From Escherichia phage PhiR68_1: 37,128 nt of DNA. The stretch lies in the sequence record PV340575; one strand, written 5' to 3'. The translations under genes and the position numbers were made by a program. The notes beneath the pieces were generated by a model that was given only the letters and a program-made list of their open reading frames with translations, had not been told where the DNA came from and did not search any database. Of this stretch, positions 1 to 37,128 are shown piece after piece. Numbering within the stretch: the stretch's first letter is position 1; every line of letters begins with the position of its first letter.

Positions 1-2
1 AT

Positions 3-7
3 TTCAA
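3..7. repeat. Target-site duplication TTCAA, left copy
   Basis: Identical 5-mer directly abuts both prophage termini; Mu transposition makes 5-bp duplications. Confidence 0.9.
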
Positions 8-190
8 TGTATTGATTCACTTGAAGTACGAAAAAAACCGGGAGGACATTGGATTATTCGGGATCTGATAGGATTAGATTTGGTGGGGCTTGCAAGCCTG
101 TAGCGCAAATTTTAGTCGTTAATCAATGAAACGCGAAAGATAGTAAAAAATTGCTTTTGTTTCATTGAAAATACGAAAAACAAAAACACA
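8..190 (+). promoter_or_regulatory. attL: Left end (attL) with transposase-binding repeats L1-L3
   Basis: Repeated motifs of the type TGTTTCATTGAAAATACGAAAA (158-182) and GAAACGCGAAAG (127-140) plus the terminal copy; matches remembered MuA end-binding consensus. Confidence 0.85.
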
Positions 191-345
191 GCAAATCATT
201 TCAATAACAGCTTCAAAAAACGTTCAAAACCGATAACAACCAGGCTGTAACCAAATGACTCATATCACAAATCAGCTCATGCCGTTTAGGTATGTTACAT
301 GTGTGATTATGTGAGGTGAAGTATGTTTTAGCTGGTTCATGGTTG

Positions 346-861
346 TTATACGGCTTTTTTTACATCTTGTGGTTCTTGTGAAGGAGCTACAAAACCTTCC
401 TGTTCATGAATACCATACTCTGACAAAATCTCTTTGCGCGCATCTGCTGGTAAAGTTTCTAGCATTTGGGCTAGTTGTATGCACTCACGCGATACGCCGT
501 GCAGAGATTGGATTTGAGTCTGATCAAAGATACTTGGCATTAGTGCTCCAAGTCCGCCTTTACTAAGTAGCTTTAATGCCCTCTGGATTTCCTCTGGTTC
601 TAACTCTGCGACCAAAGCCATTAACACAGAAGCTAACTTATAAGCTGGCTTATCGCTATCTAATAACTGCGCCCCTCCTAATTCTGCCTGAGTGGCATCA
701 GGTAATGAGCTGATATGGTATTCATAAGCAACTCCCTTTACTCCTTTGATCTGTCTCTTTTTCCATCCCTCATTAGTTGCTTTGCGGCTAATACTACTTG
801 CTGAAGACGGAAGACCAGCAACCCCTTGTAGCTCTTTAGCTGAAAACCATTCTTGTGTCAT
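346..861 (-). CDS. c: Lysogenic repressor (D108-like N-terminal DNA-binding domain, Mu-like C-terminus)
   Basis: 171 aa from the ATG (track ORF starts one codon earlier at GTG); C-terminal half ...[15 protein letters not shown]...[12 protein letters not shown]...[11 protein letters not shown] resembles Mu c; leftmost gene, transcribed leftward. Confidence 0.9.
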
Positions 862-864
862 CAC

Positions 865-1060
865 AAACCTCGCTTTAAATACACCATGTATTCAAAGAAA
901 CAAAAATATATTCATTTTAAAATCATCAAGATAGATGAAATTCAAACGAAATATTTGAATACATCATTGCATTGACAATGTATTCACACTAACATTGCTG
1001 CATACCTTGTCAGCTACCTTGCGGCGTAGCTGATGGCGTAGCTTGTGAGGATTGCATTTT
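865..1060. promoter_or_regulatory. Divergent early control region (operators, Pe/Pc, transposition enhancer)
   Basis: AT-rich intergenic region between divergent c and ner; hairpin CAGCTAC-N8-GTAGCTG (1011-1032) and tandem GGCGTAGCT (1023-1031, 1035-1043) just upstream of ner. Confidence 0.7.
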
Positions 1061-1279
1061 ATGGCGATAAAGAAAAGTAAATGTGAAGACAAAAGCAGAT
1101 ACGACATTGTTGCTGATCTGCGCAAAAGAGGAAAAAGCCTAGCAGCTCTTGGTCGTGAGAACGGTCTCTCTATCTCTACGGTAAAAAATGCCTTGGATAA
1201 ACCTTACCCTCGGGGTGAAAGAATTATTGCCGATGCATTGGGAGTTGAGCCACGAGACCTCTGGCCTTCGAGGTATTGA
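1061..1279 (+). CDS. ner: Ner-type early transcriptional regulator
   Basis: 72 aa from ATG 1061 with GAGG 9 nt upstream (track ORF starts at TTG 1052); small HTH protein at the Mu ner position. Confidence 0.88.
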
Positions 1280-1281
1280 AA

Positions 1282-35017: not shown

Positions 35018-35599
35018 GTGCTGATTGGCTATATAAGGGTATCAACAAATGACCAGAATACAGACCTGCAACGAAACGCTCTTGTTTGTGCAGGATGTGA
35101 ACAAATATTTGAAGATAAATTAAGCGGGACAAAGACAGACCGACCGGGATTAAAACGCGCTTTAAAGCGCCTTCAAAAAGGTGACACGCTGGTTGTCTGG
35201 AAACTGGATCGCCTCGGGCGAAGTATGAAACATCTGATTTCTCTCGTCGGGGAACTACGGGAGCGAGGGATTAATTTTCGCAGTCTGACCGACAGCATAG
35301 ACACATCTTCTCCAATGGGGCGTTTTTTCTTCCACGTTATGGGTGCCCTGGCTGAAATGGAACGAGAACTAATCATCGAGCGAACGATGGCTGGACTTGC
35401 TGCCGCCAGAAATAAAGGCCGTATTGGTGGGCGACCACCTAAACTAACCAAAGCGGAATGGGAGCAGGCCGGGCGTTTATTAGCACAAGGAATCCCCCGC
35501 AAGCAGGTTGCATTGATCTACGATGTGGCCCTGTCAACTCTGTATAAAAAACACCCCGCGAAACGAGCGCATATAGAAAACGACGATCGAATCAATTAA
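35018..35599 (+). CDS. gin: Gin serine invertase
   Basis: 193 aa starting GTG; MLIGYIRVSTNDQNTDLQ... with catalytic-Ser motif and C-terminal HTH; matches remembered Mu Gin. Confidence 0.96.
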   Translation: MLIGYIRVSTNDQNTDLQRNALVCAGCEQIFEDKLSGTKTDRPGLKRALKRLQKGDTLVVWKLDRLGRSMKHLISLVGELRERGINFRSLTDSIDTSSPMGRFFFHVMGALAEMERELIIERTMAGLAAARNKGRIGGRPPKLTKAEWEQAGRLLAQGIPRKQVALIYDVALSTLYKKHPAKRAHIENDDRIN

Positions 35600-35693
35600 A
35601 TCGATCGGTAATACAGATCGATTATGCCCCAATAACCACACTCAACCCATGATGTTTTTTAAGATAGTGGCGAATTGATGCAAAGGAGGTGAG
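35585..35693 (+). promoter_or_regulatory. mom regulatory region: three clustered GATC sites plus Pmom
   Basis: GATC at 35585-35588, 35603-35606, 35616-35619, upstream of com; Mu mom operon has three Dam sites in an OxyR-bound upstream region (remembered). Confidence 0.75.
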
Positions 35694-35882
35694 ATGAAAT
35701 CAATTCGCTGTAAAAACTGCAACAAACTGTTATTTAAGGCGGATTCCTTTGATCACATTGAAATCAGGTGTCCGCGTTGCAAACGTCACATCATAATGCT
35801 GAATGCCTGCGAGCATCCCACGGAGAAACATTGTGGGAAAAGAGAAAAAATCACGCATTCTGACGAAACCGTGCGTTATTGA
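35694..35882 (+). CDS. com: Com, zinc-finger translational activator of mom
   Basis: 62 aa with CKNC...CPRC. Confidence 0.92.
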
Positions 35883-36540
35883 GTATGAAGGCCAGATTGT
35901 TGGCTATGGTTCAAAGGAGCTGCGCGTTGAAACCATATCCTGCTGGCTGGCCCGCACAATTATTCAGACAAAGCACTATTCCCGCCGTTTTGTGAATAAC
36001 TCTTACCTCCACCTAGGAGTATTCAGCGGACGCGATCTGGTTGGCGTTCTCCAGTGGGGATATGCCCTTAACCCCAACTCAGGTCGTCGTGTCGTGCTTG
36101 AAACGGATAACCGGGGCTATATGGAGTTGAATCGCATGTGGCTACACGACGACATGCCCCGCAACTCTGAATCACGGGCCATCAGCTACGCGCTGAAAGT
36201 TATCAGATTACTGTATCCGTCAGTGGAGTGGGTTCAGTCCTTTGCTGACGAACGCTGCGGACGCGCAGGCGTTGTGTATCAGGCGTCGAATTTTGATTTT
36301 ATTGGCAGCCATGAAAGCACGTTCTACGAGCTGGATGGTGAGTGGTATCACGAGATAACGATGAACGCAATTAAGCGCGGTGGACAACGAGGCGTGTATT
36401 TACGGGCTAATAAAGAGCGTGCCGTGGTGCACAAATTTAATCAGTATCGCTACATCAGGTTCCTGAACAAGCGAGCAAGGAAGCGACTAAATACTAATCT
36501 ATTCAGGATTCAGCCATACCCAAAAAGCAGTTCTGATTAG
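35803..36540 (+). CDS. mom: Mom DNA-modification (anti-restriction) protein
   Basis: 245-aa ORF from ATG 35803 inside com in another frame; exact start uncertain (GTG 35833 possible). Confidence 0.88.
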
Positions 36541-36584
36541 TATCATATAAATTTATGTATTTACTCACATACGGAGCATATCAG

Positions 36585-37031
36585 ATGAAAAAATCAAAAT
36601 TGCTAATCAGTACCATCATCAGCCTATTCGTACTAACCGCCTCCTCAGTCAATCACGCTCAAGAAAAAGATTTTGATCCTGAAGTGGCTGCTGATGCAGT
36701 CTTAAGGTCCGCCGGGATAGATCCAGATAAGAGTGTTGCAAATAAAGCCCCTGCCTCTGGTTTTTGGACCTGCCACGGTATTCGTATGCATATGGGCGTT
36801 GATATGGAGTCATGGACAGACCTTGATACAGGTGAACTATACACTCAGATAGAAACAGGCCAAATTGACGAACAAGACAAGGATGAAAAGATTAAAGGGA
36901 CTGATTATCTCTATGCTTTGACTAGAAATCCTGCGGTTATAAAGTATTTTATCGTTGATAAATCAGGAAAAAATCTTTATATCCGAGATGATGTGAATAT
37001 TTTTAAGACATATAAATGTAAACGAAACTGA
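36585..37031 (+). CDS. Cargo ORF: small secreted protein of unknown function
   Basis: 148 aa from ATG 36585 with GGAG 8 nt upstream; signal peptide MKKSKLLISTIISLFVLTASSVNHA; two Cys; AT-rich; no counterpart in remembered Mu map. Confidence 0.7.
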   Translation: MKKSKLLISTIISLFVLTASSVNHAQEKDFDPEVAADAVLRSAGIDPDKSVANKAPASGFWTCHGIRMHMGVDMESWTDLDTGELYTQIETGQIDEQDKDEKIKGTDYLYALTRNPAVIKYFIVDKSGKNLYIRDDVNIFKTYKCKRN

Positions 37032-37044
37032 CATACATAAAACA

Positions 37045-37123
37045 ACTGTCTCAATTGAAGCGCGAAAGTTTGAGTTTTCGTATTTTATTTGAAACGCTTT
37101 CGCGCTTTTCGTGCGCCGCTTCA
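37045..37123 (+). promoter_or_regulatory. attR: Right end (attR) with transposase-binding repeats R1-R3
   Basis: Inverted copies of the end-binding motif (GAAGCGCGAAAG, GAAACGCTTTCGCGC, TTTTCGTGCGCCGCTTCA) ending in terminal CA. Confidence 0.85.
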
Positions 37124-37128
37124 TTCAA
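37124..37128. repeat. Target-site duplication TTCAA, right copy
   Basis: Identical 5-mer immediately after terminal CA of the right end. Confidence 0.9.

Follow-up and report, generated by a model that had tools for sequence, protein, structure and literature searches.

A Mu/D108-group transposable phage flanked by a 5-bp target-site duplication in the record of Escherichia phage PhiR68_1

The DNA analyzed here, which we call the window, is the whole stretch of 37,128 nucleotides (nt) of Escherichia phage PhiR68_1 (record PV340575). Nearly all of it is one phage element of the Mu/D108 group, which occupies positions 8-37123 (37,116 base pairs, bp), begins with 5'-TG (8-9) and ends with CA-3' (37122-37123). 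The two termini were set by alignment to known phages, and the pentamers that flank them were left out of account. Both megablast and blastn pair the first base of Mu (AF083977) with window base 8, and the final base (37235) of D108 (GQ357916) with window base 37123. The same TG start and CA end were found in related prophages at 17 distinct left and 14 distinct right junctions, with unrelated host DNA beyond them. With a slash at the junction, the left boundary reads ATTTCAA/TGTATTGATTCACTTGAAG, or ATTTCAA/TGTATTGATTCACTTGAAGTACGAAAA with a longer phage-side stretch, and the right boundary reads ...GTGCGCCGCTTCA/TTCAA, or ...TTTCGTGCGCCGCTTCA/TTCAA in the longer form. The pentamer TTCAA thus abuts both phage termini, on the same strand and in direct orientation. 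A shifted right boundary, as the junction TTCA/TTCAA could suggest, was ruled out: Mu, D108 and 14 other right junctions end with ...GCTTCA and are followed by unrelated DNA. The phage's own terminal TTCA together with the duplicated TTCAA gives TTCATTCAA at 37120-37128, and its look of a tandem repeat is coincidental.

The ends of the element are those of a Mu-type transposon (Table 1). The MuA-site core RAARYRCGAAAR has six exact matches in the window, all located at the element ends. The left cores lie at 23-34, 128-139 and 168-179, all on the plus strand, and the right cores correspond to R3 (37057-37068, +), R2 (37075-37086, -) and R1 (37097-37108, -). This layout is the one known from Mu, with L1, a gap and then L2 and L3 in direct orientation on the left, and with R1, R2 and R3 clustered on the right, where R1 and R2 are inverted relative to R3. 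The window A protein is 94% identical to Mu A overall (tblastn). Around the gyrase cut site annotated in Mu there is one mismatch in 161 nt.

Table 1. Features of the window (positions in nt; amino acids, aa; open reading frame, ORF; a dot marks features that have no strand).
Feature	Position	Strand	Basis or comparison
Left host flank, ATTTCAA	1-7	.	Mu alignments begin at base 8
TTCAA, left copy of the 5-bp target-site duplication	3-7	+	T-T-C-A-A fits N-Y-S-R-N
Mu left end attL, 5'-TG; MuA sites L1 18-34, L2 123-139, L3 163-179	8-190	+	
Repressor c, 171 aa	346-861	-	Pfam HTH_Tnp_Mu_1 2e-22; PHROG 7148 transcriptional repressor
c-ner intergenic control region; putative operators, early promoter and transposition enhancer	865-1060	.	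Position relative to Mu annotation
ner, lytic-switch regulator, 72 aa	1061-1279	+	Pfam HTH_35 5e-25; 48% to Mu Ner, 65% to D108 Ner
MuA DDE transposase, 666 aa	1282-3282	+	Pfam DDE_2 2e-136, HTH_Tnp_Mu_1, HTH_Tnp_Mu_2, Mu-transpos_C
MuB AAA+ target-capture ATPase	3321-4259	+	99.7% identical to Mu B over 312 aa
Early/semi-essential region: kil, gp6, gp7 variant, gp8, gp9, gam, gp11, gp12, two replacement ORFs, gemA, mor	4278-9473	+	
ASCH/PmgT-like ORF, 222 aa, 669 nt	7450-8118	+	P1 pmgT, 84% nt identity; RefSeq 'ASCH domain-containing protein'
113-aa ORF, 342 nt	8121-8462	+	With the 7450-8118 ORF, stands in place of Mu gp13/14/54
Late-gene activator C	9894-10316	+	98.6% identical to Mu C
Lysis genes: SAR endolysin, i-spanin, o-spanin	10411-11498	+	95-99% identical to Mu gp22, gp23, gp55, full-length
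Packaging and head: small and large terminase, portal, F, G, protease/scaffold I/Z, major capsid protein T	12247-19986	+	97-100% to Mu
Central strong gyrase site (putative function)	17810-17811	.	Alignment to Mu 17879-17880
Connector, tail sheath and tube, tape measure, DNA circularization protein N, baseplate	20053-31389	+	94-100% to Mu
Tail-fibre gene S	31389-32897	+	
Invertible G segment, G(+) orientation	31885-34963	.	Inverted repeats 31885-31942 and 34906-34963
U (G segment)	32901-33428	+	
U' (G segment)	33457-33990	-	
S' variable part (G segment)	33993-34988	-	
gin, serine invertase for the G segment	35018-35599	+	99% identical to Mu Gin
DNA-modification module: com 35694-35882, mom 35833-36540	35694-36540	+	
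D108 gp56-like ORF, 148 aa	36585-37031	+	99.3% identical to D108 gp56; PHROG 15648, unknown function
Mu right end attR, ending CA-3'	37038-37123	+	Alignment runs to D108's last base
TTCAA, right copy of the target-site duplication and whole right host flank	37124-37128	+	

The gene content was analyzed by tblastn of 54 Mu and 13 D108 proteins against the window. At least 45 conserved Mu proteins align over their full length without internal stops, and they come in the same order as in Mu and D108, from c, ner, A and B through the early genes, mor and C to the lysis, head and tail genes, the invertible G segment, gin, com and mom. The sole stop that was scored, in the alignment of D108 Gin, is the window gin's own stop codon, which is located at the length of Mu Gin (193 aa). 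A preliminary description of this DNA, made from its letters alone, had called it a complete transposable prophage with identical TTCAA pentamers at both ends, the signature of a Mu-type transposition event. Each of these elements is borne out. The pentamers at 3-7 and 37124-37128 abut termini that were set independently of them, and the sequence of this 5-bp direct repeat agrees with the Mu target consensus. Completeness is seen in two ends with MuA-site cores and in the full-length conserved proteins, and the transposable, Mu-type character in the MuA domains, the near-identical MuB and the collinear gene order. Based on these data the window is very probably one integrated temperate transposable phage of the Mu/D108 group (Muvirus), from Escherichia or a close relative as host, which was inserted by MuA-catalysed transposition.

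From established Mu biology, the path to such an insertion can be outlined. MuA would bind L1-L3 and R1-R3 and synapse the two ends, aided by the enhancer in the operator region. It would then nick at the terminal CA-3', and the 3'-OH ends would be joined to target phosphates staggered by 5 bp, in target DNA presumably delivered by MuB. Host repair or replication would fill the two 5-nt gaps, by which TTCAA would be copied onto both sides, and lysogeny would then be maintained by the repressor c.

A target duplication of 5 bases is the invariable product of Mu transposition. The Mu target consensus was described as 5'-N-Y-S-R-N-3' (PMC2602771), with CYSRG as a stronger form (PMC7350765). TTCAA fits NYSRN and does not have the outer C and G of CYSRG; taken alone the fit is weak, as it is expected by chance in 1 of 8 cases. 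Among the flanking pentamers of related insertions, 26 of 31 fit N-Y-S-R-N, against the 1 in 8 expected.

One question that is raised by such short flanks is whether the two pentamers match by coincidence, in which case the two ends would stem from two Mu insertions that were brought together by Mu-Mu recombination, by an inversion or deletion, or by a collapsed assembly. From the base composition of the window, two given pentamers match by chance at a rate of ~1e-3. Because Mu targets are biased to N-Y-S-R-N, the relevant null for ends that stem from different insertions is the rate of pentamer collisions between unrelated Mu insertion sites. Such collisions were found in 0/136 left pairs and 2/91 right pairs, that is 2/227 in total or ~1%, as expected for an N-Y-S-R-N target (1/128). 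The bias therefore raises sharing above 1/1024. Some genomes also hold several Mu-like copies, in up to 2-4 places per genome, and the flanks of the window are too short for a check of continuity. Yet even under the two-insertion null the probability of a match is only ~1%, no breakpoint interrupts the collinearity of the interior with Mu and D108, and true duplications are present in all five related prophages for which long flanks could be read. A coincidental match is, in our view, extremely improbable. A matched duplication implies a copy without later Mu-Mu recombination, adjacent deletion or inversion, namely a simple insertion.

These five related prophages serve as controls, and all of them (5/5) carry a perfect 5-bp duplication at the same terminal positions. 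In E. coli N1286 (NZ_CP178401) the duplication is TTTAT and the prophage splits agaC, which is annotated as two partial coding sequences. In 2014C-3075 (NZ_CP027447) it is TTCAG and a ddpA-like ABC substrate-binding gene is split, while in GCA_013680995.1 it is GCGAA, in the portal gene of a P22-like prophage. GCA_964049915.1 shows GCGGC, and a 4.9-kb internally deleted remnant in N61 (NZ_AP028880.1) shows GGGAA, in yjiT. An intact 5-bp duplication is the norm for this phage group. The preliminary description had presented the prophage as caught with an intact duplication; the duplication is real, and the rarity that this wording implied is not, since every relative with long flanks has one. 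The same insertion site in N1286 or 2014C-3075, to which the megablast alignments extend from query base 1 and 3, respectively, was considered and rejected, as the junctions there show the different pentamers TTTAT and TTCAG.

Two of the controls show features of their own. In GCA_013680995.1 (contig AAUHSL010000001.1) a Mu-type prophage is located inside another prophage, with 1 mismatch to the window in the left 3.3 kb and 0 in the right 2 kb. The N61 remnant (the stretch 1504-6419) has retained the two ends, c and ner, some of the G segment, and gin, com, mom and gp56, and is without nearly all of A (about the first 130 nt are left) and without all of B. It resembles a natural non-autonomous mini-Mu.

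Several points weigh against the reading of the window as an integrated prophage. The window ends exactly where the right pentamer ends, and it was probably trimmed by a procedure that was aware of the duplication, so that its tidy look is not independent evidence. The flanks of 7 + 5 nt are the only host DNA in the window and are too short for the duplication to be verified by rebuilding the uninterrupted host gene. The reconstructed empty site is the 7-mer ATTTCAA, for which ~600 occurrences are expected per 5-Mb genome. This is too frequent for the interrupted locus to be named from the window, in agreement with the preliminary description, which had noted almost no host DNA. In addition, no parent contig was found in the searched collections. 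A search with the left junction of 30 nt (ATTTCAA + 23 nt of the Mu end) returned 0 exact matches among viral contigs, contigs of GTDB-representative genomes and metagenome contigs. BLAST of both window ends against 5,426 complete E. coli genomes and the PLSDB plasmids returned related prophages, none of them with the window junctions, and exact-protein look-ups (the 158-aa and 148-aa forms of gp56, c, A and S) led only to other insertion sites, although of the 6 contigs with the exact S allele 5 are grouped together as similar places, and the source may be one of these 5. Two further points concern the genes. Mu gp19 is missing and gp13/14/54 are replaced, in a layout that related natural prophages appear to share, and inducibility, transposition and plaque formation would be predicted from intact reading frames only.

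The trimmed flanks also bear on whether the window is a resident prophage at all, or a single copy from lytic growth or virion DNA. Copies made by replicative transposition and packaged molecules also have a duplicated pentamer beside both ends. Packaged Mu DNA carries host DNA at both ends, as in the virion-derived record vB_YpM_3, and trimming has removed the original context of the window. A consensus assembly of virions, however, would have heterogeneous flanks and would not keep the pentamer of one site on both sides, and near-identical phages sit as prophages in many assembled genomes. Even if the copy did come from virions or lytic growth, the TTCAA pair would be a real Mu-type target duplication. 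We consider this origin highly improbable, if a shade less so than a coincidence of pentamers, and retain the integrated prophage as the preferred reading.

Another possibility is that the prophage is complete in sequence and functionally dead, as a result of missense changes or of the loss of gp19 and of the gp13/14/54 region. Mu gp19, gp13, gp14 and gp54 indeed have no counterpart in the window. For gp19, a protein with four transmembrane helices, tblastn found none, and gp18 (9551-9766) runs into gp20 (9762-9878). On the other hand, the genes that are essential in Mu are all full-length with 94-100% identity, and the missing genes belong to early and middle parts of the genome in which Mu, D108 and SfMu are variable as well (PMC4406740). 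Moreover, phages that are identical to the window over 15.7 kb, or that have 0-4 mismatches at their ends, are found at more than 25 sites, which points to recent mobility. A cryptic prophage is thus unlikely, though it is the least remote of the three alternatives that we weighed. In the annotations of N1286 and 2014C-3075, ORFs of 669 and 342 nt are present at the same position as the replacement pair of the window, and no ORF of the size of Mu gp19 is annotated between mor and C in vB_YpM_3, N1286 or 2014C-3075. The early region of the window has matches to PHROG 874 and 6675. The replacement ORFs match only PHROGs of unknown function; Pfam, NCBIfam, PADLOC and PDB gave no match for them, and Rfam, at gathering thresholds, gave none for the window.

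The distribution of this lineage supports its mobility. Annotated Mu-like prophages were found in 22KM0354 (NZ_CP151071), Z0117EC0036 (NZ_CP098214), E148 (NZ_AP024518), 2014C-3075, N1286 and N61, and relatives in draft assemblies in GCA_964049915.1, GCA_013680995.1 and Logan SRR10357261. Logan contig SRR10357261_36 has no difference from the window over the right 15,735 nt, and its insertion is at another site, with the flank GCCAG, in a BPD_transp_2 ABC-permease gene. As the right 15.7 kb are identical and the sites are different, the same phage clone is present at different loci in different samples. GCA_964049915.1 has 0 mismatches to the window at both ends. In more than 25 different host contexts there are copies whose ends, over 2-3 kb, have 0-4 mismatches, and phages with 0-30 end mismatches are seen in 17 left and 14 right distinct contexts, with no fixed att site. 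By these comparisons, it is suggested that the lineage is mobile currently or was so recently.

The part of the element that sets it apart is the immunity module at 466-1443, which includes most of c (with the DNA-binding domain at its N-terminus), the control region between c and ner, the ner gene and ~55 codons at the start of A. This module shows no DNA alignment to Mu. The window c has 46% identity to that of Mu and 40% to that of D108, in comparison to 29% between Mu c and D108 c. Residues 1-80 of MuA are 51% identical to Mu and 54% to D108, and from residue 81 to the end the identity is 99% to both. A diverges up to the mosaic boundary at which Mu and D108 also part. The N-terminus of the window c is 65-67% identical to the N-terminus of its own MuA, 40% to that of Mu A and 54% to that of D108 A. 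Repressor and transposase share the recognition of operator and enhancer, and both the A/c mosaic boundary and the c-like N-terminus of MuA fit this shared recognition. The c-ner region contains the repeats ATGTATTCA / TGAATACAT in both orientations, at 886-894, 956-964 and 978-986, with related copies at 875-883 and 903-914. These repeats (window 874-994) are candidate operator or enhancer half-sites.

The module is therefore not of the Mu type, since c, Ner and the MuA N-terminus are all divergent, and neither is it of the D108 type (c 40%, Ner 65%, MuA residues 1-80 54%, and at the DNA level only a 68% match over 25% of 466-1443). Among 50,697 deposited phage genomes the best match to 466-1443 was 68% over 25%. 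Yersinia Mu-like phages, which align from base 8, were considered as carriers of the module and rejected: no deposited phage exceeds this match, and c of vB_YpM_3 has 591 nt, the length of Mu c. In public assemblies, the exact c protein is present in 4,520 blocks and the exact A protein in 3,223, and the left 1.5 kb was found at 99.6-99.9% identity in nine complete E. coli genomes. Thus, the immunity module is without a described phage carrier, yet it is common as prophage in E. coli assemblies. As the module is as distant from Mu and from D108 as these heteroimmune phages are from each other, we lean towards the view that the prophage represents a third immunity group of E. coli Mu/D108 phages, in which c, the c-ner region, Ner and MuA 1-80 form one co-varying module. 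If this is true, the phage would be heteroimmune to Mu and D108 and would have its own operator/enhancer sequence, possibly the ATGTATTCA repeats at 886-986. The module could then be used as a natural third specificity in the study of how the recognition by repressor, operator and enhancer co-evolves with the MuA N-terminal domain.

Some variation is also present in the right part of the element. For the tail-fibre gene S, identity to the Mu and D108 alleles is only 79-83% (79% to Mu). The exact S sequence is rare, with 6 public contigs, whereas the alleles of c and A are very common. The P2-like phage P88 has an invertible tail-fibre segment that is 95.7% identical to the window over the G segment and the start of gin (31885-35373). 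The Com protein matches that of Mu at 100% identity and the Mom protein at 98.7% (Pfam Mom 3e-75), and Mom is in the 245-aa form, as in D108. The gp56-like ORF that follows has a signal-peptide-like N-terminal segment, MKKSKLLISTIISLFVLTASSVNHA, and is without a match in Pfam, NCBIfam, PADLOC and PDB. In the space from mom to the right end, Mu has nothing and prophage 2014C-3075 has a different ORF of 336 nt, which gives this position the look of a variable cargo slot.

Mu-type prophages with a 5-bp target duplication are textbook cases of an ordinary, already known kind, and many public E. coli genomes already contain near-identical prophages, with annotation. The practical gain is in the exact boundaries (8-37123) and in the completeness of the sequence, with little beyond correct annotation. 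The copy is at most another mosaic member of its group, with an immunity module that has no deposited phage representative.

In comparison to the known phages, ~92% of the element can be aligned to Mu (93-98% nt identity) and ~94% to D108, mostly at 95-98%. The stretches that match neither of them are 466-1443 and 7417-8494. From these alignments, the phage appears to be a natural mosaic with a Mu-like left end, a D108-like right end that includes gp56, and an immunity module of neither. Mu (AF083977 / NC_000929) shares with the window the gene order, the termini, the 5-bp target duplication and the target consensus. Its bases 1-458 are 94.8% identical to the left end of the window (8-465), and an identity of 94-100% to the window counterparts is seen for its B, kil, gam, head, tail, gin, com and mom proteins. 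The last 86 nt of the window, in contrast, are only 85% identical to those of Mu. Mu also differs in a gp7 of another type, in having no gp56-like ORF between mom and the right end, and in having gp19 and gp13/14/54, where the window is without gp19 and carries two other ORFs in place of gp13/14/54.

Shigella phage SfMu (KP010268) belongs to the same Mu/D108 group, has the same gene order and aligns from window 1471 on at 96-98%, with no match to window 466-1443. Its immunity was described as D108 type, with a c that is 89% identical to D108 c (PMC4406740). In the virion-derived record vB_YpM_3 the host DNA is 108 nt long at the left end and ~2.4 kb at the right end. Among the Mu-like E. coli prophages, each is located at a different chromosomal site with a different pentamer, and none has the ATTTCAA/TTCAA junctions of the window; the right end with gp56 is common to six genomes, and the 5-bp duplication is found wherever both ends were read. 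D108 (GQ357916 / NC_013594) differs in its left end, where 8-366 of the window is only 80% identical, in the variable early region at ~7417-8500, which is unlike that of the window, and in a gp19 without a window counterpart. The rest of the window follows D108 closely: 9763-37123 is one block, 97.5% identical to D108 9881-37235, which reaches the last base of D108 and includes both the 'D108-specific' gp56 (99.3% at the aa level) and the 245-aa form of Mom.

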